A DNA stretch of 64,000 bases, from assembly GCF_004010195.1 (NCBI RefSeq), contig NC_057753.1, positions 6,075,520 through 6,139,519 on the forward strand, in the 5' to 3' direction. The position numbers were made by a program, and so were the translations under genes. Every line of letters starts with the position of its first letter. The stretch's first letter is position 1. This stretch comes from Chiloscyllium plagiosum (Eukaryota). This document shows positions 3,601-45,074 of this stretch, one piece after another. A model generated the notes under the pieces. The model searched no databases and was not told the origin of the DNA. It saw nothing but the letters and a program-made list of their open reading frames with translations.

Positions 3601-3611
3601 GGGGACAAGAT

Positions 3612-4265
3612 GGAGTCAAAAAGTGTGGTGCTGGAAAAACACAGTCAGTCAGGCAGCATCGGAGGAGCAGGAGAGTAAAAATTCCGAGCATAAGCTCTTC
3701 ATCAGGAATGTGAGTGGGAGTGGGCAAGGGGGCTGAGACATAAATAGGAGGGGGTAGGGCTGGGGGGGAAGTTAGCTAGGAATGTGATAGGTGGATGAAG
3801 GTGGGGGTTGCTGGTGAAAGGTCGGAGTGGAGCAGATAGGTGGGAAGGAAGATGGACAAGTAGGACAGTGCCAAATTGAAGGGATGGATCTGGGATAACG
3901 TGGGGTGAAGGGAGATGAAGGAACTGGTGAAATCGATATTGATTGCTTGTGGTTGGAGGATCCCAAGGCAGAACATGAGGTGCTCTTCCTTCAGTCATCA
4001 GGTGGGTAGGATTTAGCAGTGGAGGAGACACAGGACTTGCATGTCCTTGACGGAGTGGGAGAGGGAATTGAAGTGATCGGCCATAGTCCATTGGGGTTGT
4101 TTCCTGAGTGTGCCCCAGAGATGTTCTCTTAAACATTCTGCAAGTTGGCATGCTGTCTCCCAAATGTAGAGGTGATACTTTGACAGCAACGGACAGAATA
4201 CATCCAACACTTCATCTATTATGTCCATTAGTCTCATGTAGTCTACTCTACATTGGGGAGACAGG
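3612..4265 (-). mobile_element. Penelope-like element 3' fragment (GIY-YIG end and pseudo-LTR with decayed hammerhead)
   Basis: Minus frame YIWETACQLAECLREHL...ADHFNSLSHS; homologous to 32460-33100. The hammerhead has CTGATGA-A-GAGC(ttat)GCTC but GGAA in place of GAAA. Confidence 0.85.
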
Positions 4266-14693: not shown

Positions 14694-15024
14694 CTGCAAA
14701 AGGAATTGACAGATTTCATCACTGTCAGAATCGGATAGAAATTCAGAAAATTCTAGTCTCTATAGACCAAATGCCAGCCCCACTGATTCTCACTCCTTCC
14801 TGCACTTCAATGGCAAAGTGTTGGTCAACTGTTTCCAAACCTTTTAACAACCCGCACACCAAGATATATTGCTATGTATCATTAATGAAACATTAATCTG
14901 AAACACCTCGACTGACCAGACATGACAGATGTCAGTCTTTTATACTGAACCTGACTGTGGAGAGAGGGTATGAACAATTATGAAGGGAGTTTCTTCAAAG
15001 CATGGTAGACTAATTAGGAATGTT

Positions 15025-15245
15025 TGAGGAGAAAGTGAGGTCTGCAGATGCTGGAGATCAGACCTGAAAATGTGTTGCTGGAAAAGAACAGCAGGTCAGG
15101 CAGCATCCAGGGAACAGGAGAATCGACGTTTCGGGCATAAGCCCTTCTTCATTCCTGAAGAAGGGCTTATGCCCGAAACGTCGATTCTCCTGTTCCCTGG
15201 ATGCTGCCTGACCTGCTGCGCTTTTCCAGCAACACATTTTCAGCT
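15025..15245. mobile_element. Short fold-back Penelope-derived element (inverted pseudo-LTRs) with hammerhead at 15151-15187 (+)
   Basis: Arms ~15064-15150 and ~15156-15243 are near-perfect reverse complements. Flanking 15-bp duplication ctaattaggaatgtt at 15010-15024 and 15246-15260. Confidence 0.88.
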
Positions 15246-15259
15246 CTAATTAGGAATGT

Positions 15260-16340
15260 TAGGTCACATGGGATTCAGGTTTTGCCAATTGGATACATAG
15301 TTGGCTTAACAGCAGGAGACAGACAGTGATGGTGGCGGGTTGTTTTGCAGACTGGAGGCCTGTCACCAGCAGTGTCCTACAGGAATTGGTTCTGGGTCCT
15401 CTTTTGTTTCTCAGTTATATAAGTGATTTGGATGAAAATACAGAAGGCATGATTAGTAAGTTTGCAGATGACACAAAAATTGCTGGCATCGTAGGGAGTG
15501 AAGAAGGTTTTCTAAGATTACAAAGGGATCTTGCTCAAATGGGTTAACGGGCTGAGAAATGGTAGATGGAGCTCAGTCTGGATACAAGTGAGGCTTTACA
15601 TTTTGCTACAACAAACAGGGGCAGGACTTATACAATTAATAATAGGCCCTAGGGTAATGCAGTGGAACAGAGGGATCTCAGGGCTCAGGTACATTATTTT
15701 TTGACATTTGTGTCACATATAGACAGGATGGTTAAAAAGGTGTTTAGCGCACTTGCCTCCATTGCCCATACCTTTAAGTATATGAGTTGGAAAGTCATGT
15801 TGTAGTTGTACAGGATGTTGGTGGGGCCACATCTGGAGCATTGTGTCCAGTTCTGGTTGCTCAGTTATAGCAAGGCTGTTATCAAGCTAGAGGGGGTTCA
15901 GGAGAGATTTACCTTGATGCTGCTGGATATGGAAGGTTTCAATTAGAAGGCTGACAGGCTGTGACTTCTTTCACTGGGGCATAGGAGATTGAGAGGTGAC
16001 TTTATAAACCCATGAGGGTACAGATTGGATTTATAGTAGGTGTCTTTTCTCTAGGATTGAGGAATTTTAAGACAAGAGGGCAGATTTTTAAGGTGAGAAG
16101 AGAGATTCAAAACAGACAAGTGGGCATTTTTTTATTTTTACACAGAAGATGGTTTACCTGTGGAATAAACTTCCTGAAAAAGTGATGGATGTGGGCACAA
16201 TTGTAATATTAAAAAGACTGAGATAAGTACATGAATAAGAAAGGTTTGGAGCGATATGGGCCAGGAGCAGGCAGATGGGATTAGTTTAGTTTGGGATTAT
16301 TATCAGCATAAATTTGTTAGACTGACAGGTCTGTTTTCTT
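15260..16340 (+). mobile_element. CR1 LINE 3' fragment
   Basis: VTSSVLQELVLGPLLFLSYISDLD...ISKFADDTK in ORF 15326-15547. Confidence 0.9.
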
Positions 16341-17096
16341 ATGAAAACAGAGTGCCATGTGAGTCTGATGATCAATGATTAACATTATATCTGGGCCTCA
16401 GGGAAATAGATTTGCAGGCCTTTGGGGACTGGGAAAGGGGGAATGAGACACATGGGAATGTGCTACAGATAGTCAGCTTTGATTTGATGTGTGAATGACC
16501 TCTTAATTTCTCAGAATGCATCTCTTTTGGACCTGTTTAATCTGTTCTGAGAACTTAAACCCTGAAGCCAAGCTATCATTTCGGTAAACGTGCTCTGTGC
16601 TCCCAGCACCTATTGAGGACAATGTAGGTGTTCCTTCCAAATTGAACACATGTTACATGGATGGTTTAACCAGGATTGTGAATATCTCCGAATTCTTACA
16701 GCCATACCAAAGATGAACATTTCCCCCCTCAGACTGGAAATATAAACAAATTTCCTTCCAAAGATAATGGGTGGTGATATTCATATCCTATAAGATGTGA
16801 TTACAAAATTGTCTTAGTTTCAGTTTGCTGTGACAAAGGAAAGCAATAGATGCACTACTTTCCCAAAAACACTGAATATTATCCACCCAGGCCTTAACAT
16901 CAACATTATCCCACTAGGCCTTAAGAGCAACTGACCAACATTATCCACCCAGGTCCCAAAATCAAGCTATGACCATTATTCAACTAGACCCCAATATCAA
17001 CCTGTTCAGACCCGAATATCAAACTGCGAACATTACCCCACAAGACCCCAAAATCAAACTGTGAACATTATCCACCCAGGCCCTAAATCAACCTAG

Positions 17097-17180
17097 AGAA
17101 GGGCTCATGCCCGAAATGTCGATTCTCCTGCTCCTTGGATGCTGCCTGACGTGCTGTGCTTTTCCAGCAACACATGTTCA
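17097..17180 (+). mobile_element. Truncated Penelope pseudo-LTR inserted in the 35-bp array
   Basis: gaagggctcatgcccgaaatgtcgattctcctg...caacacatgttca, flanked by gccctaa(t)atcaaccta on both sides. Confidence 0.8.
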
Positions 17181-20100
17181 GCCCTAATATCAACCTACCA
17201 ACATTATCCTACCAGGCCCCAAAAAAACCTCTGACAATTATCCCATTAGGCTGCAATGTCAACACATACAAACCCGAATATCAAACTGCGAACCATACCG
17301 CACCGGAACCCAATATCAAATGACAAACATTATCCCGTCAGGGCCCCATATCAAACTGTGAATGTTATCCCACCAGACCACAATATCAAAATGCAAACAT
17401 TTTCCCATCAAACCCCAACATTAAGCTGTAAAAAATTATCGCCCCACGCTACGATATCAAACAATGAACATTATCGCACCAGGTCCCAATATTAAACTGC
17501 AAACCTTATCCCATCAGACCCCAATGTCAACCTGCAAACCTTACTCCACTAGACACCGACATCAAACTGCAAACCTTATCTCCCCAGACCTTAATAGCAA
17601 AATTGAGCCTTATCCCACGAGACCCTAATATCAAACAGCAAAAATTATCCAACCAGGTCCCAAAATCAACTTAAGACCATTATCCCACTAGGCCCCAATA
17701 TCAAATTGAAAACCTTATCCCACCAGACCCCAATAACATATTGCAAGCATTATCCCTCTAGGCTAAAGTCAAACTGCGAACCTTATCCCACCAGACCCTG
17801 ATATTAAATTGCGAACCTTTTTTCACCTGACCCTAATATCAAACTGGAAGACTTATCTCACCAGGCCCAAATATTAAAGAGTGATCCTTATTCCGCAAAA
17901 CCCCAATATTAAACTGCAAACCGATCCCACTCGACTCCAAAAGCAAACTGCGAACATTATCCCAGCAGACCCCAATATCAACTGATAACATTATCATCCC
18001 CAGGTCCCAACATCAAACGGCGAGCATTATCCCACCAATCAGGCCCCAATAATACAGTGTGAAACTTATCCCGACAGATCCCAATATTCAAGTGTGAACT
18101 TTAGCCCACGAGGCCCCAATATTAAATAGCGAACCATATCCCGCAGACCCCAATATCAAACTATGAACATTATCCCAGCAGACCCCAATAACAAACGCAA
18201 ACACTAGCCCACTAGACCCCTACAACAAAATGCGAACTTTATCCTACCAGGCCCCAATATCAAACTGCAAGTCTTACCCCAACAGACCCCAATATCAAAC
18301 TGGAAGCCTTATCCCACCAGACCCCAATATTAAACAGTGAACCCTATCTTGCAAGACCCCAACATTAAACTGTGAACTCATCCCACCAGACCCCAAATAT
18401 TAAACTGAGAACATTATCCTGTCAGACACCAAAATCAAACAGCGAACTTTATCCCAACAGGCCCCAATATCAAACTGCGAGCTGTATTCCAACAGACCCC
18501 AATATCAAACTGTGAGCCTTTTTCCAGCAGACCCCAGTATCAAACTGCTAGACTTATCCAATCAGACTCTGATATTAAACAGTGGATCTCTTTCCACCGG
18601 ACCCCCGATGTCTTATCCCACTAGGCCCAAATATAAAAAGAGTGGACCTTACACCACCGGACCCCAATATTAAACCTCGAACCCTATCCTGCAAGACACC
18701 AAAATCAAATTGCAATTGTTATCCCACCAGACCCCAATATCAAACAGCATACATTGCCCCACCAGGCCCCAATATCAGCTGACCAACATTATCCCACCAG
18801 GTCCCAAAAACAACCTACAGCCATTACCCATTAGGCCCCAACATGAACCTGTACAAGCCCGAATATCAAACTGCGAATATTATCTAGCCAGAACCCAATA
18901 TGATACTGAGAATATTATTCCACCAGACCCCAGTATCAAACTGGAAACCTTATCCCACCAGGCTCAAATATTAAACAGTGAACCATATCCCACCAAACCC
19001 CAATATTAAACTGCGAACCCATCTGATCAGACACCAAAATCAAACTGCAAACATCCCAGCAGACTCCAATATCAAACTGGTAACATTATCACTCCACATC
19101 CCAACATCAAACTGTGAGCATTATCCCACCAATCACCAATATCAAACTGAAAGCCTTGACCAACCAGGCTCCAATATTAAAGAGTGAATCTTATCCCGCC
19201 AGACCCCAATATTCAAGTGCGAGCCTTAACCCCCAGGCCCCAACATTAAATTGCAAACCATATCCCAGCAGACCCCAATATCAAACTGCGAACATTCTCC
19301 CAGCAAACCCTAATATCAAACTGCGAGCCTTTTCCCACCAGACTCCAATATCAAACTGGAAATGTTATCCCACCAGACCCAAATATTAAAGAGCGAACCT
19401 TATTCCGCCAAACGCCAATATTAAACTGCAAATCCTATCCTGACAGACCCCCATATGAAACTGCAAACCTCATCCCGTCAGATGCCAATATTAAACTGTG
19501 AACCCATCCCAAGAGACTCCAATATTGAACTGTGAACATTATCCCACCAGATCCCAATATTAAACTGGGATCCTTATCCCATCAGACTCCAACATCAAAC
19601 TCCGAACCTCATTGCACCAGACCCCAATGTCAAATTGGAAGCCTTATCTAACCAGGCCCAAATACTAAAACTGAACCCTATCCTGCCAGACCCAAATATG
19701 AAACTGTGAACCCATCCCACCAGACCCCAAAATCAAACTGCAAACATAATTCCCCAATATCAAACTGTGAACCTGATCTCACCAGATCTTAATATCAGGC
19801 TGTGAACCTTATCCCACTAGAATCCAATATCAAACTGCAGACATTGCACCACCAGGCCACAATATCAGCCGACCAACATTATTCCACCAGGTCCCAAAAT
19901 CAACCTACGACCATTATCTCACTAGGCCCCAACATGAACTTGTAAAAGCCCAAATATCAAACTGTAAACATTATCCCACCAGACCCCAACATCAAACTGT
20001 GAACATTATGCCACCAGGTCCTAACATCAAACTGCGAATCTTATCCTGCCAGGCCCCAATATCAGATTGCGAGCCTTCTATCCCCAGACTCCAATATTAA

Positions 20101-20939
20101 ACTGGAAACCTTAACCCACCAGACCCCAATATGAAACTGCAAACCCTATCCTGCCAGATCCCAGTATTAAACAGTGAACCCTATCCCACCAGAACCCAAT
20201 ACAAACTGCAAACCCATCCCACTGGACTCCAAAATCAAACTGTGAACATTATTCTACCAGGCCCCAATTTCAAACTGCAAACATTATCGCAGCAGACAAC
20301 AATATCAAATAGGTAACATCACCACCCCTGGTCCCAACATCAAATGCGAGCATTATCCCACCAATCACAAATATCAAACTGAAAGCCTAGTCCAACCAGG
20401 CCCCAATATTAAAGTGCGAAACTTATCCCGACAGAATGCAATATTCAAGTGCGAATCTTAGCTCACAGGCCCCAATATTAAATTGCGAACCGTATCCCAG
20501 CAGACCCCAATATCAAACTGTGACTATTATCCCCGCAGATCCTAATTTCAAACTGTGAACATTATCCCAGCAGACCACAACGCTAAACGGCGAACATTAT
20601 CCCAGCCGATGCCAATATTATACTGGGAATATTATACCACCAGACCCCAACATCAAACTGCGAGCCTTATTCAACCAGACCCCAATATCACCGTAGAAGC
20701 CTTATCCCACCAGGCCCAAATATTAAAGAGTGAACCTTACCTCACCAGATCCCAATATTAAACTGCAAATCCTATCCTGCCAGATCCCAAAGTTAAACTG
20801 AAAACATTATCCCACCAGTCCCCAAAATCAAACATTATCCCAACAGACGCCAATATCAAACTGCAAATCTGTTCCCACTAGACCCCAAATATCAAACATT
20901 GTCCCACCAGGGCCCACTATCAGCCTACCAACATTATCA

Positions 20940-21095
20940 ACATCTCGGGCATAAGCCCTTCTTCAGGAATCCTGAAGAAGGGCTTATGCCCGAAACGTCG
21001 ATTTTCCTGCTCCTTGGATGCTGCCTGACCTGCTGCGCTTTTCCAGCAACACATTTTTCAGCTCTGATCTCCAGCATCTGCAGTCCTCACTTTCT
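20940..21095 (+). mobile_element. Penelope pseudo-LTR element with short inverted head and intact hammerhead (20968-21003)
   Basis: AATC-CTGAAGA-A-GGGC(ttat)GCCC-GAAA-CG-TC-GATT. 16-bp duplication cctaccaacattatca at 20924-20939 and 21096-21111. Confidence 0.88.
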
Positions 21096-21167
21096 CCTAC
21101 CAACATTATCACCCCAGGTCCCAACATCAAACTGCGAAACATATCCCACCAGACCCCAAAATTCAAG

Positions 21168-21358
21168 TCGGCAGAATTGGATGCTGCAGATGCTGGAGAT
21201 TAGAGTCAAGATTAGGAGTGGTGCTGGAAAAGCATAGCAGGCCAGGCAACATCCAAGAAGGAGGAAAATTAATATTTCGGGCAAAAGACCTTCAATTTTC
21301 TTTCTCCTTGCATGCTGCCTGACCGGCTGTGCTTTTCCAGCACCACTCTAATCTTGAC
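21168..21358. mobile_element. Older fold-back Penelope-derived element; a duplicated copy lies at ~23071-23232
   Basis: Inverted arms gtcaagattag..gtggtgctggaaaagc / gcttttccagcaccactctaatcttgac; flanks caa(a/t)attcaagt. Confidence 0.8.
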
Positions 21359-23699
21359 CTCAATATTCAAGTGCAAACCTTATCCCACAAGACGCAAATA
21401 ATAAATTGTGAAGCATATCCCACCAGACCCCAGTATTAAACTGATAACTAAATCCCACTAGACCCCACTATCAAACTGCAAACAGTCTCCCAGCAGACTC
21501 CAATATCAAACTGTGAACTTTATCCAACCAGGCCCCAATATAAAAAAGTGAACATTGTCTCATCAGTCCACAACAACGAACTGAAAGCCTTATCCCAACA
21601 GTCCCGAATATTAAAGTGTGAACCTTATCCCGCCAAACTCCACTAAGAAACTGCAGACATTATCCTATCAAGTGCCAATATCAAACTGCGAACATTATCC
21701 ATTCAGGCCCTACCAACATTATCCCACCAGGGCCTAAAATCAACCTATGACAATTATTCCATTAGGCCCCAATATCAACATGTACAGGCCTGAATATCAA
21801 ACTGTGAACATTATCCCACCAGACCACAAAATCCACCTGCGAACACTGTCCCACCAGAACCCAATATCACATGGCAAACATTATCCCACCGGACCCCAAT
21901 ATGATACTGGAAACATTATCCCAACAGATCCCAATATCTAACTGTGAACATTGTCCCACCAGTCCACAGGAGTCCCAAATATTAAAGTGCGAACCTTATT
22001 GCGCCAGACCCCACTAAGAAACTGTGAACCTTATTGCACAAGGCCCCAATATCAGACTGCAAGCCTTATCCTACCAGACGCCGATATTAAACTGATAACC
22101 ATATCCCACAAGGCCCCAAAATCAAACTGCAAACATTATCCCAGCAGACCCCAATGTCAAACTGCGAAACTTATCCAACTAAGCCCCAAATATTGTATCA
22201 CCAGTCTCCAACATCAAACTGCAAGCCTAATCCCAACAGTCCCAAATATTAAAGTGCGAACCTTATCCCGCCAGATCCCAAAATCAACGTACGACTATTA
22301 TCCCATTAGGCCCCAATATCAACATACAGGCCCGAATATCAAACTACGAACATTACCTCACCAGACTACAAAATCCACCTGCCCACAGAATCCAACATCA
22401 AACGGCAAACATTATTCCCCCAAGCCTCCATATCAAACTGCAAATGTTATGCCAACAGGCCTCAATGTCAAAATGCAAATATTATCCCATCAAACCCCAA
22501 CATCAAACTGTTTTTTAAAAAAAAAAATCGCTCCAGGCTAAAATATCAAACTACAAACATTATCCCACCAGGCTACAATACCAAACTGGGAACATTAACT
22601 CACCAGGTCCCAACATTAAACTCTGAGCCTTATCCTACCAGACTCGGGTACCAAACTGCAAATATTATTCCACTAGACCCCAATATCAAACTGCAAACAT
22701 TATCCCACTAGACCCCAACATCAAACTGCTAATCTAATTCAACCAGACCGCAATATCACCCTGGAAGCTTTATCCCACCAGACCCAAATATTAAAGAGTG
22801 AATTCATCCCACCAGACCCCAAAATCAAACTGTGAACGTTATCCTGCCAGACACCAATATCAAACTGCGAATCTGTTCCCAGTAGACCCCAAATATCAAA
22901 CATTGTCCCACCAGGCCCTAATATCAGCCACCTCACATTATCACCCCAGGTACCAACATCAAACTACGAACATTATCCCATCAGGCACCGAATTCAAACT
23001 GAAAGTCTTGTCCAACCAGACCCCAATAGTAAAGTGCAAAACATATCCCGCCAGACCCCAATATTCAAGTTGGCAGAAATGGGTGCTGCAGGTGCTGGAG
23101 ATTAGAGTCAAGATTAGAGTGGTGCTGGAAAAGCACAGCGGGTAAGGCAGCATCCGAGGAGGAGGAAAATCGACTTTTTGGGCAGAAGCCCTTTGGCTTT
23201 TGCCTGGAACGTCGATTTTCCTCCTCCTTGGATCTGGTGGGATAAATGTAGGTACATTGATATTAGGGCCTGGATGTATAATGTTCACAGGTTGATACTG
23301 GGGCCTTATCCAACCAGGCCCCAATATAAAAGCGAACATTGTCCCACCAGTCCACAATAACAAACTGAAAACCTTATCCCAACAGTCCCGAATATTAAAG
23401 TGCGAACCTTATCCCGCCAGAGCCCACTAAGAAACTGCAGACATTATCCTACCAGGCACCAATATCAAACTGCGAATATTATCCACCCAGGCCCTAATAT
23501 CAACCTACCAACATTATCCCACCAGGCCCCAAAATCAAGCTACGACAATTATTCCATTAGGTCCCAATACCAACATATACAGGTCTGAATATCAAGCTGC
23601 AAGTAATATCCCACCAGACCCCAATATCAAGCTATGAACCTCAACCCAACAGGCCCCAATATCAAATTGCAAACATTATCCCTGCAATACCTGATACCC

Positions 23700-25065
23700 T
23701 TGCAATAGGAAAGGTGCTGTTAAAATTGACAGGCTTCAGAAAATATTTATAAGCATGTTGGTAGGTTTGAGCTGAAAGAGGCTGAATCGGCTATGGCTAT
23801 TTACCCTGGAGCGTCAGAGGCTGAGTGGTGATCTTATAGAGATTTATACAATCATCTATTTTCCCTGAACTGTCAGAGTCGAAGAGGTGACCTTACGTAG
23901 GTTTACAAATCACAAGGGGCATGGATAGGGTAAACAGACAAGGTCTTTTCCCTGGAGTGGGGGAGTCCAGACTACAGGGCATCGGTTTAAGGTGAGAGGG
24001 GAAAGATTTAAAAGGGACATAGGGGGCAACTGTTTCATGCAGAGGTGGTGCATTGGAGGATCTGAAACCTGAGTCGAGGCTGAGGTAACTAGTTGTTGTC
24101 AGGGACAACCACTTTACAGGTGCTCTTAATAACGTAGGCAGCAACAAGATGGCTTCTCAATGCAAATAACATGACAAAACAGCTTCTATTCTTTTTTTTC
24201 TGTACACTACCACCTAAGTGCCAAAACAGCTTCTAGGCTGCAAATTGACAATTCTGCTAAAGCTGCATAAAATGGCTGTTAACGAGTTTTGTGAAGATTT
24301 GTAGCTCAGGTTATTTGCAGCTTAAAAATGGCTTTTAAGTTACTAACTGCTAATTCTGCTATTGCTGCATAAGTGATTAACCACAATCTGCTTCAATAGA
24401 GATTAGAAGACAATGCTGCCTTTAAAGCATAGAAATAATTAGACGAGACAAGACATTACTGGCCATCCTAACTGACCTTCAGTTGCAGGTGCAATGGCTT
24501 GGTTAGTGAGTTCAGGATAGCCTGAGTGGTGGAAAATGAAGTTGGTTTCCAGGAAATATCATTGGACCACATAACTATCAAATAAGGCAGTATCGTGTAT
24601 TAATTAGTAATTGTTTGAATGTACTATGAGGTTGCCTGTACCCTTCTTTAAAAAGGGAATAAGAATGTGTGTTTTAAGCCATGTGCGCAGCTCCACCAAG
24701 GAACAAGGAAGTACGCAACCTCTATTTCTGGATGCACTGTGCCCGGCCATATGAAAAGTAAAGAGTAAAGTTTTAACAGTCAGACGATTGGGAGTGTTTA
24801 TTCACTGATTGCAGAACAGAGATTCCCCACCGGGGGGATCCAGATCTTCACATGGAATGAACTGCCAGAGAAAGTGGTGGAGGGTAGTACAATGACAACA
24901 TCTAAAAGCCATTTAGATGGATGAATATGAACAGGAAGGGTTGAGGGAGAGATGGGCCAAATGCTGGAAAATGGGTCTAGGTTAATTTGGGATATCTGAT
25001 CAGCATAAATGAGTTGGACCAAAAGGGCTTGTTTCCGTGCTGTCCATTTCTATGAATCTATGAGT
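23700..25065 (+). mobile_element. CR1 3' fragment split by an insertion at ~24054-24850
   Basis: CR1 tail ...gcagaggtggtgcat resumes as catggaatgaactgccagag at 24851. Confidence 0.8.
24054..24850 (+). mobile_element. Probable solo LTR (~0.8 kb)
   Basis: Termini TGGAGGATCTG...CAGATCTTCA (TG...CA, imperfect inverted repeat), cat(t/g) on both flanks, AGTAAA near the 3' end; cleanly interrupts a CR1. Confidence 0.6.
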
Positions 25066-25392
25066 GTTAGAAGCCAACATCAAATGTCACTATAATCTTG
25101 CCTTTGCTGTATAGTAGATAAAGAAAACTTAGGAAATAGGATGCAGTATAGTAAAGATGCCAAGTTACAGAGATCATGACAACATGATCAAGCGTAGGAG
25201 TAGGCAATTCAGCTCCTTGAGCATGTTCAGTTGTTTGATAAACTCATGGCTGATCTCACCTTGATCTCAACTCTAATTTCCTGCCCACTCCCATAATCTT
25301 TCAACTCATTCTCATTAAAACTCAGTTCTCTCTCTTCCTTATGTTTACTCAATGTCCTAGCATCCACCAGATCTTGGGGTAGTAATTACTCA

Positions 25393-25698
25393 TGGGTGGC
25401 ATGGCGGTTTGCACTGCTGCCTTACAGCGCCAGGGATCCGGGTTCAATTCCCACCTCGGGCAACTGTCTGTGTGGAGTTTGCACATTTTCCATGTGTCTG
25501 CGTGGGTTTCCACCAGGTGCTCCGGTTTCCTCCCACAGTCCAAAGATGTGCAGGTTAGAGTGAATTGGCCATGCTAAAATGTCCATAGTGTTGGGTGTAG
25601 GGGAATGGATCTGGTTGAGGGTTACTCTTCGGAGGGTCAGTGTGGACTTGTTGGGCCGAAAGGGCCTGTTTCCACACTGTAGGGAATCTAATCTAATC
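25393..25698 (+). mobile_element. HE1-type tRNA-derived V-SINE
   Basis: B box ggttcaattcc, V-domain gtgtggagtttgcacatt...ggtttcctcccacagtccaaagatgtgcagg, CR1-like tail ending (TAATC)n. Confidence 0.88.
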
Positions 25699-25800
25699 AT
25701 CTATTTTAAATCTGTTAGCCCTTATCCTAAAATTATGACCAAATGATCCAGTTGCCTCCTTTCTCGATCCCTGATCAACTTTGTCAATCTCATTATTCCC

Positions 25801-25947
25801 CAGAGCTGAAAATGTGTTGCTGGAAAAGCGCAGCANNNNNNNNNNNNNNNNNNNNNNNNNNNNNNNNNNNNNNNNNNNNNNNNNNNTTCCAACAACACAT
25901 TTTCAGCTCTGATCTCCAGCATCTGCAGTCCTCACTTTCTCCTAGAA
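25801..25947. mobile_element. Fold-back Penelope-derived element with an assembly gap (25836-25886) at the hairpin centre
   Basis: Inverted arms cagagctgaaaatgtgttg / caacacattttcagctctg; 14-bp duplication cattattccccaga. Confidence 0.82.
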
Positions 25948-25998
25948 CATTATTCCCCAGACCCAACTAGAAAGCAGCGAACATTTGAAAATACTCAC

Positions 25999-26044
25999 CA
26001 CTGGAACAAGTTCACCATCCATTTTTAACATCTCATACTGGAGT
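25999..26044 (-). other. Candidate 46-nt upstream exon of the ZNF gene
   Basis: Minus-strand acceptor ATCTTTTCTGCCACAG| and donor GTG|GTGAGT. Confidence 0.4.
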
Positions 26045-26339
26045 CTGTGGCAGAAAAGATATCAGAAACAAGAGTCAGCAAAAACACACACACACACAGC
26101 AGAGGAAATATTTAGGATGCAGAAAATGTCATAGCTCCTTCATTGAACATACTGTAAAGAACGTCTACGAAATCCATCAACATCAGTCAGGGATAAATAT
26201 TCAGAAGAGAATAGCATTTCTCCTGATTTGAGTTCACTGTGTATAAATCCTCCCTCTCTAACCCTGCATCCTTCTCAGTTCAGCATACAGATTTATAGTG
26301 TTCCCTGCTTGTGTCCCAGGATGACCAGGGTGATCGCGG

Positions 26340-26550
26340 AGTTTTTGATAGTGAGGTTGGGGTTGCAACGGAGTGAGTGGAGGGCTGCGCGTTCCGAGGG
26401 TGAGAGGTTGGAGTGGGTGAGAGGGGTGGGGGAGTTCAGGTGGCGGTTAATATCGCGGCGGCAGTTGGCTATGCAGAGGTCGAGGGCAGGTAGGAGGCCA
26501 GCACGGGGTGTCCAGGTGGATGGGGTGTGTTGGAGGCGGGAGAAGGCGTT
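26340..26550 (-). mobile_element. Penelope-like element, N-terminal ORF fragment
   Basis: TPSTWTPRAGLLPALDLCIANCRRDI...SNLSPSERAALHSLRCNPNLTIK resembles the pre-RT SNLS..E..AL..L.....I.IKPADKG segment of Penelope elements. Confidence 0.7.
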
Positions 26551-26834
26551 TTTTTTGATAATGACCACACAACATTCCCTGCTGTGACTGCCACTCCTTG
26601 TGGTCGACAGTCCCTCGATTTGGGGATGAAGTCTACTCAGGGTCAGGATTCGCTGTCCTGAGTCTTCATGTGGCTGAAGAGAGCTGCAGATCTTTGATCA
26701 ATGGCGGGGGTCGTCCCCATGGGTAGCCACGTTCAGAGATCAGGATTCGTTTCCTTCCCTCTCCTCCTGTCTCATCAAGGAGCCCTTGGGGGGTGAAAGG
26801 TTAATCCAGCTTGATGGACAGGTCGTCACCATGC

Positions 26835-27785
26835 TGGAGGGCGGGGCAGCAAGCTCCACCCACTCATTGCAAAGACGGCCCCCTACAAAGATGGCGGCCG
26901 CACACCCGCGCGATGCCCCCTACAAAGATGGCGGCCGTCACCCTCGGGGGGGGCCCTCTGCCTCCGCGGGCAAGCCGCCGGTGTCCGGTTCGCCCCACAA
27001 ACGGTGCCGCTTTCCGCGCTGCGTCCCTCACTCAAGGCGTCCGCGGAACCTTTCGTTCGTTTCGCCCGATCCGTCGCCCCGTACCTGTCGCTCCATTTTG
27101 TAACATTCGCCGAGCGGAACGGGAACGGGATGAGGAGACGGGGGGGGAGGAGTGAGAAACAAACTGACCGCCACCGCCGCCGCCGTCGTCTTCGCTCGCA
27201 CGTTCCGCGCGCATGCTCCCTTCACAGCGCGGTGTGCGCCTGCGCACCAACGGTACTTTACGGCGGGAGCGGGGAAAATAAACCGAACCTCTCCGTCTCC
27301 GCGCATGCTCCAGTTACCGTGCGGCTGTGCGCCTGCGTATGCACGTACTTCCGGTGGAGCGGGAACTTTCGAGAAGGCTGGAAGAGGGGCACTGAGCTGT
27401 TTCTGTCGGCGGCGGCGGCGGCGGCGTTTGCCGGGGTTCAAACGGAGCAGGCCGGCCGAGGTCGTGCGTGCAGGTGGGAAGTCAGTTGCGCTGATGGCCG
27501 TCTGAGGCCAGCGGTCGGTGCTACAATACGAGGCGATGCGGAGGTCGAGGCTGCGTCGCTGGGGAAACACCGCACAGTGCAGCCGGTCAGGCAGCGCCCC
27601 GCCGCGGGACGTGGAGAGCCACCGTGCTGGCTGCTCAGGGGGAGGCTAAAAGGTGTGATAAAAGCAGCTGAGACAGCGAATGTGCTGCAGGAGAGCGCAC
27701 AGCCCGGGCTGGGGCTGGGGCCGGGGCTGGGTGTGGAGGCTGTGTCTCTGATCTCTACAAACAACCCGCCCCGCCCCTGTGGGTA
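26835..27785. promoter_or_regulatory. CpG island, probable bidirectional promoter
   Basis: Only CpG-dense region in the window. NRF1-like GCGCATGC (27209, 27301) and TGCGCCTGCG (27235, 27328), ETS ACTTCCGG (27347), YY1 AAGATGGCGGC twice, divergent CCG and CGG tracts, donors on both strands. Confidence 0.85.
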
Positions 27786-27819
27786 AAGTTCACTCAGAGC
27801 AGGGGGTGGGGGGTGGGTG

Positions 27820-28050
27820 GGGGAGAAGTTACCGTTTTGAGAGGTGAGCCACTTGCTGGTAGTGAGACATGAGCGATTACGCACTCTTCCTGATCTGTTA
27901 GGCCGAGAGTGTGGTAATTTGTGGGATAGATGGGCAGCAGTTTACTGTCCCCCCTGTGTAAGATCTGGTTGGAGTGCCAACTCAACTCCTGAGGAAGTTA
28001 CTGTTTTGAGAGATGCAGGATCTAGCCAGTGGCTGATAGTAAGGGATGAG
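27820..28050 (+). mobile_element. Gypsy aspartic protease relic (two partial copies)
   Basis: EEVTVLRDAGSSQWLIVRDE matches VKILRDTGSNQWLVVRNE at ~30376-30430. Confidence 0.7.
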
Positions 28051-28121
28051 TAAATACGCATGCAGGAGTTGTAAGTAGTTGTTACTTAATTATTCTCTGT
28101 ACTTTAAGAAGTAAAGTTGTT

Positions 28122-28703
28122 TAGGGTGTAGGTTTGCTCGCTGAGCTGTAGGTTTGATATCCAGACGTTTCATTACCTGGCGAGGTAACATCATCAGTGG
28201 TGACCTCCAAGTGAAGTGAAGCTGTTGTCTCCTGCTTTCTATTTATATCTTTCTCCTGGATGGGGTTTCTGGGTTTGTGGTGATGTAATTTCCTTTTTTT
28301 TCTGAGGGGTTGATAGATGGCATCTAGATCTATGTGTTTTGTTTATGGCGTTGTGGTTGGAGTGCCAGGCCTCTAGGAATTCTCTGGCATGTCTTTGCTT
28401 AGCCTGTCCCAGGATAAATGTGTTGTCCCAGTCAAATTGGTGTTTTTTTTTCATCCATGTGTAGGGCTATGAGAGAAAGAGGGTCGTGTCTTTTTGTGGC
28501 TAGCTGGTGTTCGTGTATCCTAGTGGCTAACATTTTCTTCTTGTTTGTCCTATGTAGTGTTTGTAGCAGTCCTTGCATAGAATTTTGTAGATGATGTTGG
28601 TTTTGTCCATGGGTTGTACTGGGTCTTTTAAGTTTTAGTTTTCAAACAAAAACTCAGCGAGCAAAGCTGTGCCCTAAACCTCAACCTGCGCTACAAACCT
28701 CGC
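28122..28703 (-). mobile_element. Penelope-like 3' fragment (second subfamily) with inverted terminal piece and intact hammerhead at 28161-28200
   Basis: HQFDWDNTFILGQAKQRHAREFLEAWHS. Hammerhead (minus): CCA-CTGATGA-T-GTTACCT(cgcc)AGGTAAT-GAAA-CG-TC-TGG. 12-bp duplication agtaaagttgtt. Confidence 0.88.
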
Positions 28704-30617
28704 AGTAAAGTTGTTAATTTGTACTTTTAAATAGTCTTTGGACTATTACAGATTACTATCACAGATTACTATATGGGATAAATCTTTTCCGTGTTGCTGG
28801 TTTAAATTAAGCAGGTAGTTTTAGCCCATGTTGTTACAGTTTAGTGGGCTCTGCCCTGCGTTTCAACTGGTTTAGACTGATTTGAATACATTTGTGGGTA
28901 ATAAAAATCTCAGCAGATTTAAACCCTTGTAGCCTGGTGTCCTAGATCTTTAAGTAAAATGTAGGTGAGGCGATATGTTTAATTTCTGTTACTTGTGGTT
29001 GATTTTAAATTGAAAGTGAGAGAAGTGGATCTAAATATTGCGTTGAGGTTCTGGGATTTGAAGGCGATTCTCAAATTTTCTGAGAAACTGTAGAAGGAAA
29101 GAAAAAGGCCATACTTTTAGAATTAGAAAATACATTAGATTAGGGTTTAACCAAGGGCAAAAGTAAAGCTGAAATTGTAAAGGAGTTACTTAAACACTTA
29201 GACGTGTCAGAGAAACAGACTAGTGCAGTAGAAGTAGAAAAACGTAGATTGCAATTGAGAAAAATTGAGTTAGAAGATAAACAAAGGGAGAGAAAAATAG
29301 AAAGAAAGACAGAAGCAATAGAAGGAGAAGGTTCTTAGCTGAGCAAAAAGACAGAAATTGAACTGTAAGTCGAGACTTAGTCAGTTAATAGGATGGAGAT
29401 TAAAAACGAAGGTAGTGATATATACCATTATGTCAAAACACTCTCTTATTTTGAGAAAGATGTTGAAGCCTTTATTTAATTTTTAAAAATTGGCTAGGCA
29501 AATGGAGTTGTCTGAGGATTTACGGGTAGTGCTAGTTCAGATTAAACTGGTAGGCAGAACTAGTGAGGTATTTGTCACATTGTTAAATAAGGTGACAAGA
29601 TTATTAAAAGGTTAAACAGGCTATTTTAATTGCTTTTCAATCTGTAAAAGAAGCTTATACACAGTGGTTCAGAAACACAAAGGAGGAACCAGGTCAGACT
29701 TATGTTGAGTTTGAAAGAATTTTGATAAATGGGGTGTATTTTCTGAAAATGGATAGGATCTTTGAGGCACTACAATAAATTTTTCTGCTGAAGGAGTTTA
29801 AAGCCTCACTCCCAGAGATAAGAATTCACGTGGAGGAACAGAAGTTTCAAAAAGTGGGAAGGGCAGTAGAATTGGCAGATGAATGCATGTTGGTGCATAA
29901 GCCAAGCTTCCAACCAGACTTTTGTCCTGTGAGGGAGAGAAGTTGGATGAAGGGGAGCTCCTACACCACAAGACTGAGTAGAGAGCGCTGGTAAGGGGTT
30001 ACCACTGGTTAAAGAAGGTGGACAAGAGGTGAAAGACCTCGGGTGTTTTTGCTGTAATGGAGTGAAATATGAACTGTTACAGTACCAGTGGTTTCAGAAG
30101 GGGGACAAGGAAAAGGTGTTTTCACTGCCAGAAAGTGGGATATGTAAAATCACAGTGCTAGTTATTAAAGAAAGGCACTGTGGGAAAAGATGTGGTGAAT
30201 GAAACTAAGCCAGTGGCATTAGTGAAGGTAGTAAAGGAGACACCAGCAAGAGCCAAAGAGCTGCAGGAGAGTCTACAGCCTAGGCAGGGGCTGGGTATGG
30301 AGTTAGTACCTGATCTCTATGAAGAATTCGCCTCTGTGGGTCAAGTTTATTCAGAACGGGAGAGGAGAAGGGGTAAGTTAAAATTCTGAGAGATACAGGC
30401 TCTAACCAGTGGCTGGTAGTAAGGAATGAGTGAATATGTACTCTTTCTGATCTGATCCCTGAGAATATGACAATTTATGAGATAGATGGACAGAAATTTA
30501 GCAACCCCCTACTTAAGATCAGGTTGAAGTGCCAACTCAAGACAGGGAAAGTTAGTGGGACTGATCAACTGTGTCAGTTCCAGGAATTCAGTTTGTTCTT
30601 GGGAATTATTTAGCAGG

Positions 30618-30791
30618 AGTTGAAAAATATGGTGCTGGAAAAACACAGCAGGCCAGGCAGCATCCCTACTTCAGGCTTATGCCCGAAACGTCTGTTCTCC
30701 TGCTCCTCGGATGCTGCCGGCTTGCTATGTTTTTCCAGCACCACATTTTTCAACTTTGGTACTCCAGCATCTGCAGTCCTCACTTTCTCCT
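30618..30791. mobile_element. Fold-back Penelope-derived element nested in the Gypsy relic
   Basis: Inverted arms agttgaaaaat..ggtgctggaaaaac / gtttttccagcacc..atttttcaact; 15-bp duplication aattattt(a/g)gcagga. Confidence 0.8.
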
Positions 30792-31147
30792 AATTATTTG
30801 GCAGGATAAGGTGGAATGACTTGTGGAGAAGCCCAAGGAAGACCGAGATGGGGAGAAGGATAGGAAGTTATAATTTTAAGAAGTACAGAATCTATTTGCT
30901 GTGCTGTCAGATAAAGTGTCAAGAGATCATAAAGAGGTCAAACAGGTTATTTTAAGTGCTTGTGAATTGACACCAGAAGCATTTAGACAGTGGTTTAAAA
31001 ACACAGAGAAGGAACCAGGTCAGACTTGAGCTTTAAAGAATTAAACATAATCATCTTGATCGATGGGTGCGTACTTTGAAAATAGATAGGACCTTTGAGA
31101 CTCTCGGAGAGATTATTTTGCTGGAGGAGTTTAAAAACGCACTTTCA

Positions 31148-31480
31148 GAGGTGGTAAGTGTATGGAATGAGCTGCCAGAGGAAGTCGTGGAGGCTCGTAA
31201 AGTTGCAACATTTAAGAGGCATTTGGATGCGTATATGAATAGAAGGGTTTGGGGAGATATGGACCAGGTGCTGGCAGGTGGGACTAGAATGCCCGAAACG
31301 TCGATTCTCCTGTTCCCTAGATGCTGCCTGACCTGCGCTTTTCCAGCAACACATATGAATAGAAGGGTTTGGGGAGATATGGACCAGGTGCTGGCAGGTG
31401 GGACTAGATTGGATTGGAATATCTGGTCGGCATGGACGAGTTGGACCGAAGGGTCTGTTTCCGTGCTGTACATCTCTCTG
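31148..31480 (+). mobile_element. CR1 3' tail nested in gag, itself carrying a 64-nt Penelope fragment
   Basis: VVSVWNELPEEVVEA...TFKRHLDAYM; insert at 31289-31352. Confidence 0.85.
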
Positions 31481-31837
31481 ACTGAGTTTACGTGGAGGAA
31501 CAGAAAATTCAGGAAGTGAGAAGGGCAGCAGAATTAGCAGATGGGTGCATAAGACAAGCTTCTGGTCAGAATTTTATCTTGTAAGGGATAGAAGTTGGAA
31601 GAAGGGGAGATCACTCATTACGAAATCAAGAGTAGAGGACACTTATAAGAATTTACGGCAGGTTTAAAAAGAAGCCCAAGAGATTGGAAAAGTGGTGAGG
31701 CCGTAGGGATTTCCATGTAGTAAAGTGGGACACGTAAAGCCACATTGCTGGTCAGTAAAGGCAAAGATGTGGTAAAAGAAACTAAGCCGGTGGCATTAGT
31801 GAAGGTAGTAAAGGAGACCTCCAGAATAGCTGTGGCC

Positions 31838-32240
31838 TCATTCCTGATGACTGGCTTTTGCCTGAAACGTCGATTTTCCTGCTGCTTGAATGCTGCCTGA
31901 GCTGCTGTGCTTTTCCTGCACCACTCTAATCTAGAATGTTAAAAATCACAACACGAGGTTATAGTCCATCAGGTTTATTTGGAAGCAATTGCTTTCGGAG
32001 CGCTGCTCCTTCATCAGGTAGTTGTGGAGCAGGGCCACGACACAGAATTTATAGCAAATGTTTCCTCCAGCATTTGTAGTGGTTTGAATCTGCCACTTCC
32101 GGTTGTCAGTTCCAGCTGCCCGCTGCAGTGGTCGGTATATTGGGTCCAGGTCGATGTGCTTATTGATTGAATCTGTGGATGAGTGCCATGACTCTAGGAA
32201 TTCCCTGGCTGTTCTCTGTTTGGCTTGTCCTATAACACTA
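31838..32240. mobile_element. Cluster of three abutting Penelope fragments from different families
   Basis: Pseudo-LTR with CTGATGA...GAAACGTC at 31841-31875 (+); GGAGC/GCTCC-type pseudo-LTR at ~31937-32030 (-); GIY-YIG end at ~32060-32235 (-). Confidence 0.75.
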
Positions 32241-32461
32241 CTATTATAAGTGTGTGTGGGGAGTGTAAGTGTGTGTGTATGAAAGAGATGGTCTGCGTTG
32301 AGAATGTGTATAAGGTATGAGCAGGTAAGGAAATAATTAACATTAGGGGTGTGTGAGACAAAGGCTCAGCTTGGATCAGCTTGAACTAAAAGTAAACTTT
32401 GAGGTGCTGGGGGCAACTGTAATGCTTTCACAAGGTGAAAAAGCATCCATTATGTAAACGC

Positions 32462-34165
32462 AAAAGTGAAGGCTGCAGGTGCTGGAGATTAGAGTCAAGA
32501 GCATGGTGCTGGAAAAGCACAGCAGGCCAGGTAGCATCCGAGAAGCAGGAATATCAACGTTTCAAGCAAAAGCCCTTCATCAGGAATGAGGCAGTGAGCC
32601 TCGGGTTGAGAGATTATTGGTGGTGGGGCTAAGGAGAAGGTAGCTGAGAGTCTGATAGGTGGATGGAGTTGGGGGTACTAGGGATAGGTCAGGGACGAGG
32701 ATGGAATAGCAGGGGCAGATGGGAAGGAAGATGGACGGGTCATGATGGTGCCGAGCTGGAAGGTATAAGGTGGGGAGGGGAAGTGAGGAAACTGGTGAAA
32801 TCCACATTGACGCCATATGGTTGGAGGGTCTCTAAGCAGAAGATGAGGCATTTTTCCTCCAGGTGTCTGATTATAAGGGTGTGGCACTGGAGGAGGCCCA
32901 GGTTTTTGGCCGAGTAGGAGAGGAAGTTGAAGTGTTCGGCTACAGAGCGGTGGGATTGGTTGGTGCAGGTGTCCCAGAGATGTTTTCTGAAGCAATTTGA
33001 GTAGGCGCTCTGTCTCCCCAATGTAGAAGAGATCGCATCAGGAGTAACGAATACGGTAAGTGATGCGTGGAAGTGAAGATGAGACATTGATGTGTGTGGA
33101 AGGATCCTTTGGGGTCTTGGACAGAGGTAAGGGGGGAGCAATGGGTGCAGGTCTTGCATTTCCTGTGGTGGCAGGGGAAGGTTTGGGAGGGGAGAGTGTG
33201 GGAGCAGAAATTGTAGTCTTTAAAAAGGAGGCCATCTTGTGTGTTCTGTAGTGAAACTGGTCCTCCTAGGAGCAGATGTAGCGGAGGCGGAGGAATTGGA
33301 AATAAGGAATAGCAGTTTTTTTACAGGAGGCAGGGTCGGAGGAGGTGTCATCCAGGTAGCTTTGAGAGTGGGTGGGTTTGTAGAAAATGCCGGTGAGTTG
33401 GACACAGTTGATGGAGGTGGAGAGGTCCAGGAATGGGATGACGGTGTCTGAGAAGGTCCAGGTGAATTTAAGGTCGACGTAGAATATGTTAGTGAAGTTG
33501 ATGAACTGAACTTTTCAACGTCCTCTGGAGCATGAGGTGGCACTGATACAGTGTTCAGTGTAGCAGAGGAAAAGGTAGGGAGTGATGCAGATGTAACTCC
33601 GGAAGATGGACTGTTCTACGTAGGCAACAAAGAGGCAGGCATAGCTGGGACCCAAGTGAGTGTCCACGGCTACCCCTTTCATCTGGAGGTAGTGGGAGGA
33701 TTTAAAGGAGAAATTAAGAGTGAGGACCAGTTCAGCGAAATGAATTAGTGTTAATGGAAGGGTCCTGGTCAGGAAGGCGGGAGAGGAAGAAACTGAGGAC
33801 TTGGAGGCTTTGATCATGGCAGATGGAGGTGTATGTGGACTGGATGTCCATGGGAAGATGAGGTGTTAGGGGCCATGGAATCTGAAGTCTTGAAGGAGGT
33901 GGGTGGTGTGCCGAATATTTATGGAGAGTGTGGGCGGGGTGGGGGGTGATGTTTAGGACAGTATTGAGGTATATAGAGATGAATTCAGTGGTGCAAGAGC
34001 AAGCTGAGACGATGGGTCAGCCGCGGTAGTCAGGCTTGGGGATCCTGGGTAGGAGGTAGAACCAGGTGGTGTGGGATTCTGAACTGAGGTTAGAAATTGT
34101 GGGTGGGAGAATATCTGAGGTGATGAGGTTGTATATCGTCTGGGAGATGGAGGTTTGGTCTGATG
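32462..34165 (-). mobile_element. Penelope-like element, long decayed copy (RT + GIY-YIG + pseudo-LTR)
   Basis: YLQMKGVAVDTHLGPSYACLFVAYVEQSIF (RT), YIGET and SVAEHFN (endonuclease). Hammerhead at ~32553-32587 reads CTGATGA-A-GGGC(tttt)GCTT-GAAA-CG-TT. Confidence 0.88.
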
Positions 34166-34996
34166 ATTCATTATATAAAGCCATTTAACAAAATGAAGAA
34201 GCATTCAGTATATAAAGTCAATTAACAAGATGAAAAGTGTTCATTATGTGAAGCCAGTTAAGAAGGTTAAGAACATACATTGTGTAAAAGCAGATGACTT
34301 AATCTTTACTATTGACACTTGCTGATTATAACGGTCACCCAATCAATACGTACGTTGCCTTATCTGAATGCTCCTCCCTGTAAATGACTATATAATTCTT
34401 TAAGGAACTGCTGTTCCGGAGAAGACTGAACTCCTGTCTCTGTGCGCATGGTTGATCAGACATAAATTCTGTGTCTTATAATCCTGCTCCACAACCCCCT
34501 GATGAAGGAACAGTGCTCCGAAAGCTGGTGCTTCCAAATCAACCTGCTGGACTCTAACCTGGTGTTGTGTGGGAGAATATCTGAGGTGATGAGGTTGTAT
34601 ATCGTCTGGGAGATGGAGTTTTGGTCTGATGATTCAGTATAAAGTCAATTAACAAGATGAAAAGTGTTCATTATGTGAAGCCTGTTAAGAAGGTTAAGAA
34701 CATACATTGTGTAAAAGCAGATAACTTAATCTTTACTATTGACACTTGCTGATTATAACGGTCACCCAATCAATACGTATGTTGCCTTATCTGAATGCTC
34801 CTCCCTGTAAATGACTATATAATTCTTTAAGGAACTGCTGTTCCGGAGAAGACAGAACTCCTGTCTCTGTGCGCATGGGTGATCAGACATAAATTCTGTG
34901 TCTTATAATCCTGCTCCACAACCACCTGATGAAGGAACAGTGCTCCGAAAGCTATGCTTCCAAATCAACCTGCTGGACTCTGACCTGGTGTTGTGA
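34103..34996 (+). repeat. Tandem duplication (~466-bp first unit, shorter second unit), each unit ending in a hammerhead-bearing Penelope pseudo-LTR
   Basis: gtgggagaatatctgagg starts at 34103 and 34569; the copies are near-identical. CTGATGA-A-GGAAC(agt)GCTCC-GAAA-GC occurs at ~34499 and ~34926. Confidence 0.92.
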
Positions 34997-34999
34997 TTT

Positions 35000-44875: not shown

Positions 44876-45074
44876 GAGAAAAGAGGACGGCAGATGGTGG
44901 AACTCAGAGCCAAAAAGTGTGATGCTGCTGGAAAAGTGCGATCTGTCAGGATCAGAGTCAAAACATGTGGGGCTGAAAACTACAAATGTTAGGAGATCAC
45001 AGTGTGTCAGGCAGTATTGCAGAGAGACAACAAGTTAACATTTTGAGTGTCAATGACTCTTAATCAGAGCTAGA

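Follow-up and report, generated by a model that had tools for sequence, protein, structure and literature searches.

A stretch of 64,000 nucleotides of Chiloscyllium plagiosum (contig NC_057753.1, positions 6,075,520 to 6,139,519), hereafter the window, contains a zinc-finger gene, a 35-bp satellite and many decayed retroelements. Among the latter are six short inserts derived from the pseudo-long terminal repeat (pLTR) of a Penelope-like element (PLE), which are the subject of this analysis. Loci were named by the start of the insert in the window, and signed positions were counted from the predicted cut of the hammerhead motif, +1 being 21000 in the 20940 copy; L and R denote left and right arms. 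All six inserts listed in a preliminary description of this DNA, at about 85-220 bp, were found at their places and consisted of pLTR sequence only, with lengths of 221 (15025), 85 (17097), 156 (20940), 192 (21168), 143 including a gap (25801) and 173 bp (30618). Five are fold-backs of two inverted arms, as described; 17097 is one arm, and the centre of 25801 consists of 51 N (25836-25886), so its junction could not be read.

Each insert is flanked by its own target duplication, exact at 15025 (15 bp), 20940 (16 bp) and 25801 (14 bp), with one indel at 17097 (16/17 bp), with 1 mismatch at 30618 (15 bp), and at 21168 either 12 bp with 1 mismatch or 17 bp with 2, giving a range of 12-17 bp (12-16 bp in the preliminary description). 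At random site pairs, an exact match of at least 14 bp was obtained in 0 of 2547 cases outside the satellite and in 1.1% of 3000 cases inside it, where three of the six inserts lie. Following removal of the insert and one duplicate, the 17097 and 20940 sites matched paralogous satellite blocks across the junction at 83-86%, and these empty blocks back the two duplications; the 21168 site, with its insert removed, matched satellite blocks only at the general level of 77-79%. An AATT, ATTA, TAAT or ATAT core was present in at least one duplicate at all six sites, in line with the core proposed before, but its place within the duplication varies, the motif set was picked post hoc, and chance occurrence per site is 19% outside and 39% inside the satellite. 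By direct reading, several outer ends have 2-4 bases in common with the duplication, including CCTA (20940), TCTG (25801) and GAC (21168).

Using BLAST, the same family group was found at 12 loci in the window, those beyond the six being 3613, 23070, 31289, 31842, 44875 and a long copy at 32462 (Table 1). Alignment placed 15025, 17097, 20940, 25801 and 31289 in subfamily A, to which 30618 is related, and 21168, 23070, 31842 and 32462 in subfamily B; two further types occur besides these. Duplications around 23070, 31842, 3613 and 44875 were looked for and not found. The 54-bp exact duplication at 31289 is far longer than the 11-17 bp at other loci, and its host fragment is presumably CR1-like. 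As 21168 and 23070 sit at the identical base of paralogous satellite blocks (84-86% alike), with tail variants in common, they are probably one insertion event that was later duplicated.

Table 1. Window coordinates of the pLTR inserts, the long copy and the hammerhead motif.
Feature	Coordinates	Strand	Description
5'-truncated copy	3608..4176	-	About 570 bp; third subfamily
Fold-back insert	15010..15260	.	Duplication 15010-15024 / 15246-15260; antisense arm 15025-15151, long end (+99, with tail) to -27; sense arm 15149-15245, -34 to short end (about +60); TCA common at junction; loop TTCC; 96% inverted-repeat identity
Single-arm insert	17080..17197	+	Sense arm 17097-17180, about -24 to short end; 16/17-bp duplication; 35-bp satellite; paralogous empty block 23441-23579
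Fold-back insert	20924..21111	.	16-bp duplication; antisense arm 20940-20970, about 1-3 nt from cut to -32; sense arm 20970-21098, -30 to long end; paralogous empty block 22874-22997
Minimal type-I hammerhead motif (predicted)	20968..21003	+	CUGAAGA at 20972, extra A, 4-bp stem II, GAAA, palindromic ACGU
Fold-back, subfamily B	21157..21372	.	Antisense arm 21169-21294, long end to -24; sense arm -2/+2 to short end; 12-17-bp duplication
Fold-back, subfamily B	23070..23233	.	Absent from preliminary description; arms -22/-19; sense arm truncated at about +20, directly followed by about 72 bp of inverted satellite (23234-23305)
Fold-back insert	25791..25961	.	14-bp duplication; antisense arm from short end; sense arm to long end; centre N gap
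Fold-back insert	30604..30806	.	15-bp duplication; antisense arm from short end, internal deletion (about +17 to -18), reaches -29; sense arm -19 to long end; GG common at junction
Single-arm insert	31235..31408	+	Arm of 66 bp, -14 to about +55; exact 54-bp duplication on either side
Single-arm insert, subfamily B	31835..31933	+	-37 to short end; adjoins stub of another PLE family
Decayed, 5'-truncated PLE	32448..34179	-	Reverse transcriptase (RT), C-x4-C-x2-C linker, GIY-YIG remnant, 3' untranslated region, hammerhead, long end
Old diverged stub	44875..44962	-	About +15 to long end

The long copy (32459-34168) is stop-ridden, with C3 of the hammerhead at 32583, near its 3' end, and an 11-bp duplication with 1 mismatch. 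A full-length copy with the partial-tandem pLTR-ORF-pLTR arrangement is absent from the window. Pfam gave no match on this decayed copy. Its RT part found 82 proteins (best E 1e-68), the nearest being from Chiloscyllium punctatum (70% and 68%) and Stegostoma tigrinum (55%), which makes the long element shark-type. Both RVT_1 and GIY-YIG were present in the two full-length relatives scanned, the C-terminal frame of the window copy aligned to the nuclease of a relative (E 2e-7), and its linker aligned to that relative's linker. Thus the parent combines RT followed by C-terminal GIY-YIG in one open reading frame (ORF) with a minimal hammerhead in the 3' pLTR, as in endonuclease-positive (EN+) PLEs. 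Comparisons with published systems are based on excerpts of the cited papers; in PMC8557442, a CX2-5CxxC linker between RT and EN is given as a Neptune/Nematis trait, and the linker sequence of the window copy fits assignment of the parent to the Neptune or Nematis clade. The proposed match of the inserts to the 3' end of the PLE at 32462 held as to PLE origin, but at only 76-83% identity and with at least two subfamilies present, so this copy is a relative and not the direct source. At 21014, both arms of 15025 carry T>C, a variant in the minority in public run X2 (about 6% of depth), which points to one source element for both.

A pattern scan gave 7 matches to a hammerhead-type motif in the window compared with 0.00 in 100 shuffles, and a structural descriptor gave 4 full motifs compared with 0 in 30 shuffles. 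The motif is thus far above chance, but the description of the inserts as hammerhead-bearing was too broad, as an intact CUGAnGA...GAAAC core is found in only two of the six (right arms of 15025 and 20940). In these two, stem II and the palindromic 15.2-16.2 pair are intact as well, and the same applies to the long copy, with a C17U change. The cut is predicted between 20999 and 21000. Judged from its sequence, the motif is a minimal type-I hammerhead and a predicted ribozyme, with the extra base before stem II, the G10.1-C11.1 pair, the palindromic 15.2-16.2 and the absence of helix III described for truncated PLEs in PMC4209133. Helix I is weaker than the 4-5 bp reported there: by direct reading, AUUC/GAUU forms 2 Watson-Crick pairs, U-U and 1 pair, although a 2-bp helix I is reported for D. 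virilis in the same paper. The hammerheads of PMC4209133 are mostly single motifs, with opposite-strand pairs in Schistosoma; such pairs are 100-700 bp apart there and about 30-60 bp here, and the excerpt names no sharks. Rfam gave no hammerhead family at E<=1, as expected for a minimal form without helix III, and matched only sub-threshold miRNA hairpins. Local folding was weak (z +0.6 to -1.3 in 4 of 5 copies; -2.3 in the fifth, which includes the palindrome), and the 15025 transcript was predicted to fold into a hairpin of -187 kcal/mol in which the inverted arm pairs over the ribozyme and buries it.

Two fixed outer ends were found, a short one at about +60 and a long one at about +99, about 38 bp apart. 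One long and one short end are combined in all four fold-backs with two normal ends (15025, 21168, 25801, 30618), on sides that vary. PLE insertion units carry a 30-40-bp tail at one end only (PMC8557442), and an inverted 5'-truncated copy with such a tail at one end was found in all four. The stretch of about 38 bp is identified as the PLE tail. In the Anolis Poseidon element PAc, the tail corresponds to the interval from one RT start site to the other. The PAc protein, a predicted dimer with a preference for ATT, cleaves and extends both strands, its main substrate being uncleaved RNA (PMC11167929). PAc resembles the inserts in the two RT starts, the cutting and extension of both strands, ATT and uncleaved RNA, the distance from cut to distal start being 85-92 nt compared with 99 here; it belongs to a different clade, and the main text of that paper is silent on inverted or solo pLTR insertions.

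The outer ends also bear on the view that the inserts are miniature inverted-repeat transposable elements (MITEs) mobilised by a DNA transposase. Short non-coding sequence, inverted repeats and flanking duplications would suit it, but the sequence corresponds to the 3' end of an element with RT, and we regard this origin as extremely unlikely. The MITE class was set aside on two further grounds: long and short ends swap sides and single-arm copies occur in place of fixed equal terminal inverted repeats, and duplications of 11-17 and 54 bp, inserts of 66-221 bp and several subfamilies take the place of a constant short duplication and homogeneous copies.

The 12 loci comprise 18 arms, 16 of which have a resolvable 5' end, the value for 30618L being read by eye across the internal deletion. 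Whichever outer end they run from, 12 of the 16 begin at -14 to -37 (15025, -27/-34; 17097, -24; 20940, -32/-30; 21168L, -24; 23070, -22/-19; 30618, -29/-19; 31289, -14; 31842, -37), clustering ahead of the hammerhead. The remaining four are 21168R (-2/+2), 44875 (about +15) and 3613 and 32462, which extend far upstream. In the preliminary description the arms mostly met at or near the hammerhead and, in one of its two readings, cDNA synthesis stopped at the ribozyme. Arms do meet within the 5' half of the motif, yet mostly 19-34 nt upstream of the cut and not at it; likewise the stop depends on position, yet its place is 14-37 nt upstream of the cut, which makes the second claim only loosely right and indicates that the copied RNA was uncleaved. 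In a length test that left out 7 arms (20940L, 23070R, both 25801 arms, 44875, 3613 and 32462), the five arms from the long start (117-127 nt) all exceeded the six from the short start (58-97 nt) in length; the exact one-sided p was 0.002, and 0.005 with 23070 left out. The 5' stops of the two groups were alike (p=0.79). As arm lengths differ by start while stops do not, the stop appears to be set by position and not by length.

Two features of this zone were noted separately. The 20940-20970 antisense arm covers almost exactly -32 to the predicted cut, which would suit priming on a 5' cleavage product; an alternative is suggested by its 3-nt microhomology. A splice acceptor at -20/-19, close to the -19 at which two arms begin, was weighed and discounted, since no common upstream exon precedes those arms; in D. 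virilis, an intron ends at helix I (PMC4209133).

The zone could also reflect RT stalling at a folded or protein-bound hammerhead, or at ribozyme-cut RNA ends, in the course of the same two-primer insertion. Every stop falls inside the motif or next to it, 20940L covers about -1 to -32, 21168R starts at -2/+2, and the anole ribozyme is protein-assisted (PMC11167929). Against this, stem II has just 4 bp and folding is weak, most arms pass both cut and stem II, 21168R may be a later microhomology deletion (compare 23070), the 3-nt microhomology of 20940L permits internal priming, and no RNA-seq ends at the cut are reported for anole in the excerpt of PMC11167929. Stalling is therefore rated an unlikely cause.

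No two of the five resolved junctions are alike, and the shared breakpoints proposed as a sign of self-amplification are thus absent among them. At 15025, 20940, 21168 and 30618 the junctions lie on inverted microhomologies of 1-3 nt (TCA/TGA, GG/CC, T), and 23070 has a 1-nt filler. The antisense arm follows the left duplicate and the sense arm precedes the right one, the orientation expected if each target 3' end primes a cDNA. Copying of the same segment by both arms would call for two RNA molecules, for one RNA with two pLTRs or for one RNA used twice. In L1 twin priming, a second primer anneals internally and yields non-overlapping arms, which are different parts of one RNA. The inserts resemble that process in priming on both strands, inversion with microhomology and a retained duplication, and differ in that both arms copy one segment and two start sites are used. 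Hence the earlier label of twin-primed insertion is apt for priming from both target strands but not in its L1 sense.

Formation of the hairpins by snap-back synthesis or later recombination after a single-primed insertion, followed by trimming through selection against long palindromes, would agree with the self-priming proposed for PLE palindromic junctions (PMC3846280), with the later remodelling seen at 21168/23070 and with the short inverted repeats at junctions. Snap-back cannot account for 15025 and 30618: there, the strand with the additional loop bases begins at the short end, whereas the tail is on the other arm. It is excluded at 20940 too, as the arm with the loop is just 31 nt long and cannot yield the long arm. 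Moreover, single-arm stubs stop in the same zone (-14, -24, -37) and the duplications are intact. We consider this route very unlikely.

Taken together, the inserts are pLTR end pieces of a PLE, and are probably dead-end products of nicking on both target strands by the element's protein, followed by priming of one short cDNA per strand. In short, the GIY-YIG nuclease would nick both strands of AT-rich DNA 11-17 bp apart, a step that leaves the observed duplications and is modelled on in vitro work with the anole PLE. Each 3' end would then prime RT at one of two internal sites, about +60 and about +99, if the outer ends are taken as start sites. Both cDNAs would read through the uncleaved hammerhead, as arms spanning the cut indicate, and end 14-37 nt upstream. 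The cDNA ends may anneal at the 1-3-nt inverted microhomologies found at the junctions, lose a few bases and be filled in, giving a head-to-head hairpin, and capture of one cDNA only would leave a single-arm stub. The hairpin would thus be rebuilt at every insertion and not be the moving unit.

For the end zone itself, we lean slightly towards an RNA 5' end near -32 rather than stalling or selection. The 20940L arm ends exactly at -32, and the heptamer TCATTCC at -34 to -28 resembles the initiator (Inr) consensus. An RNA start is favoured by these two features and by the Drosophila pLTR, since Drosophila Penelope has an internal promoter within it (PMC2377424). More speculatively, the stubs may record a dedicated RNA of about 130 nt or more from an initiator 32 nt upstream of the cut, which solo pLTRs would transcribe and which would be remobilised in trans in the manner of a short interspersed nuclear element (SINE), the mirror arm being built anew by dimeric RT at each landing; this is improbable.

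Public contigs were aligned to reference 20966-21112, and the end and joint figures below are from the best 18 of 644 loose-end rows and the best 15 of 96 joint rows. At least 103,758 contigs matched in X2 and 97,346 in X16. The long end was sharp, with at least 3,236 (X2) and 3,044 (X16) loose ends at 21097-21099 leading into AT-rich unrelated flank. At the -30 edge, at least 856 (X2) and 801 (X16) contigs left the reference, with a median loose part of 255 nt. The agreement of these loose parts with their consensus (0.34-0.35) was that of random flank (0.33-0.35), unlike continuing element (0.59-0.61), and the consensus ends in native CCTCAT; subject to the biases of contig counts given below, most of these contigs thus appear to part from the element only a few bases further upstream. 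Joints running head to tail, with the long end followed by -30, were found in at least 34 (X2), 15 (X16) and 2 (X17) contigs, and short-end-to-long-end joints on the opposite strand in at least 34, 13 and 1. These recurrent joints are insertions of the element, nested or tandem, into its own end. Since palindromes that are almost perfect probably do not survive such assembly intact, contig joints give no inner-junction distribution. The loose-end consensus also carried a weak RGYC signal 13-17 nt past the long end, at roughly the length of a duplication. In X24, a raw poly(A) single-cell run, 0 reads matched the reference, which has no weight as a circular-RNA test, and X17 is only guessed to be RNA.

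Scanning for the core pattern gave 0 loci in viral contigs and 7 in metagenome contigs, whose similarity to the window is confined to the core. L008, a bacterial chance match without stem I, was dropped, as was L007, a near-duplicate of L004, leaving 6 non-redundant, non-bacterial loci. An inverted arm is present in three of them: L001 and L003 join at about -23 to -36, and L004 has a 100-nt spacer. L006:1-210 is a 103-nt tandem dimer with two intact minimal hammerheads, a retrozyme-type arrangement. Pairwise identity upstream of the core was 71/90 at 1-6 nt, 31/90 at 7-12 nt and 25/125 beyond; as these loci possibly belong to different families, the drop is only suggestive.

These data bear on a non-autonomous, self-amplifying pLTR family, retrozyme- or SINE-like, with its own short RNA mobilised in trans by PLE protein. 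Its very high abundance in X2 and X16, the head-to-tail joints and the L006 dimer would suit such a family, as would the capacity of pLTRs to act in trans (PMC3846280) and the promoter within the Drosophila pLTR (PMC2377424). However, tandem joints make up about 1% of long-end junctions and have single-copy-like depth, and retrozymes are direct tandem repeats, whereas a transcript here would fold into the hairpin that covers the motif. The anole protein needs RNA up to ORF nt 172, about 55-60 nt past the distal start (111-118; PMC11167929), a part that the stubs are without. The retrozyme- or MITE-like family of the preliminary description also conflicts with the lack of a common junction among five, the presence of at least two subfamilies, unequal termini (tail or none) and variable duplication length, and we hold it to be distinctly doubtful. 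As a class, the non-long terminal repeat retrozyme was rejected: two or more direct tandem units with complete hammerheads occur at 0 of 12 loci, and tandem joints are rare in public contigs.

Several points weigh against the origin from two short cDNAs or its details. The sample is small, 12 loci of which 21168 and 23070 are probably one event, and the length test is conditional on short copies. The centres of these two inserts differ (-24/+2 and -22/-19), which shows that a junction can alter after insertion and that old ones need not be in their original state. The cut is reached by two arms, 20940L (about -1) and 21168R, and some templates may be cleaved RNA. Inr-like matches number 7 in 341 nt of the region, which makes the heptamer weak evidence. 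Nor is the pile-up a universal trait, since the arms of the Poseidon-type fold-back at 47236-47816 meet about 200 nt upstream of its hammerhead. Young long copies are under-represented in contig counts, the X2 counts are lower bounds, and the -30 bin pools all ends at or beyond -30; the short end gave no clean top row among the rows listed and is overlapped by a subfamily indel. Finally, the biochemical model is borrowed by analogy from another PLE clade.

Among known systems, the units of EN+ PLEs (Penelope/Poseidon, Neptune, Nematis; PMC8557442, PMC3846280) share head-to-head arms, a tail at one end, variable duplications, 5' truncation and AT-rich targets. Here, both arms are mostly pLTR-only without an ORF between them, their 5' ends cluster just ahead of the hammerhead, and duplications measure 11-17 bp compared with 8-10 bp in Adineta (PMC8557442). 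Metazoan non-long terminal repeat retrozymes are likewise pLTR-derived and non-coding with a type-I hammerhead, and are reported in one chondrichthyan (PMC7761336; bioRxiv 10.64898/2026.07.22.740005); they form direct tandem repeats that give circular RNA, whereas the present inserts are inverted or single and most have broken cores. Inverted pLTRs, tails, palindromic junctions and solo pLTRs are already known (PMC3846280, PMC8557442), as are opposite-strand hammerhead pairs (PMC4209133), and the inserts are best read as the published inverted-pLTR/tail architecture in minimal form. No account of shark pLTR-only hairpins or of 5' ends clustered ahead of the hammerhead was found in the literature covered, to which Repbase, Dfam, Arkhipova 2006 and the supplements (Frangieh Fig. 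S2, Cervera figures), which may describe them, do not belong; nothing further on pLTR-only hairpins came from the excerpts of PMC5753468 and PMC8969392.

Inverted arms and duplications of 12-13 bp recur in two other PLE insertions of the window, and a second PLE family there shows these features together with a tail. The insertion at 28110-28715 pairs a long antisense arm, whose hammerhead has a stem II of 7 bp, with a short sense arm, and its duplication measures 12 bp; that at 47102-47829 is a Poseidon-type compound insert, in which a short antisense pLTR, a 30-nt filler and a 270-bp fold-back lie within one 13-bp duplication. A further hammerhead-bearing pLTR family occupies 31940-32235 and 34211-35010, its copies at 34211 and 34638 forming a direct tandem with 427-bp spacing and 96-98% identity, the nearest to a retrozyme-type dimer in the window. 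The 35-bp satellite (about 16900-23680) consists of higher-order duplicated blocks with four pLTR inserts in 6.8 kb. A C2H2 zinc-finger ORF on the minus strand (12689-14395) is located to one side of it, and a promoter-like CpG-island region (26800-27800) to the other. The 30618 insert is hosted by two decayed copies (29000-31800) of a region that appears similar to the gag/protease part of a long terminal repeat retrotransposon. A 44-bp tandem repeat is found at 49969-50820, with an inverted related stretch at 44625-44737.

How PLEs complete integration and make inverted pLTRs is still open, and the later integration steps are described as unvalidated in the in vitro study (PMC11167929). The present inserts refine this known biology: the stubs lay out a geometry of two start sites, two primed strands, an uncleaved ribozyme and a positional 5' stop, and predict where the RNA begins. 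For annotation, such abundant hairpins can pass for MITEs or miRNA precursors, and they coincide with assembly gaps (25836). If the stubs did record a dedicated RNA, the genome would preserve, on a very large scale, a natural archive of priming from two ends and of where PLE RNA begins.

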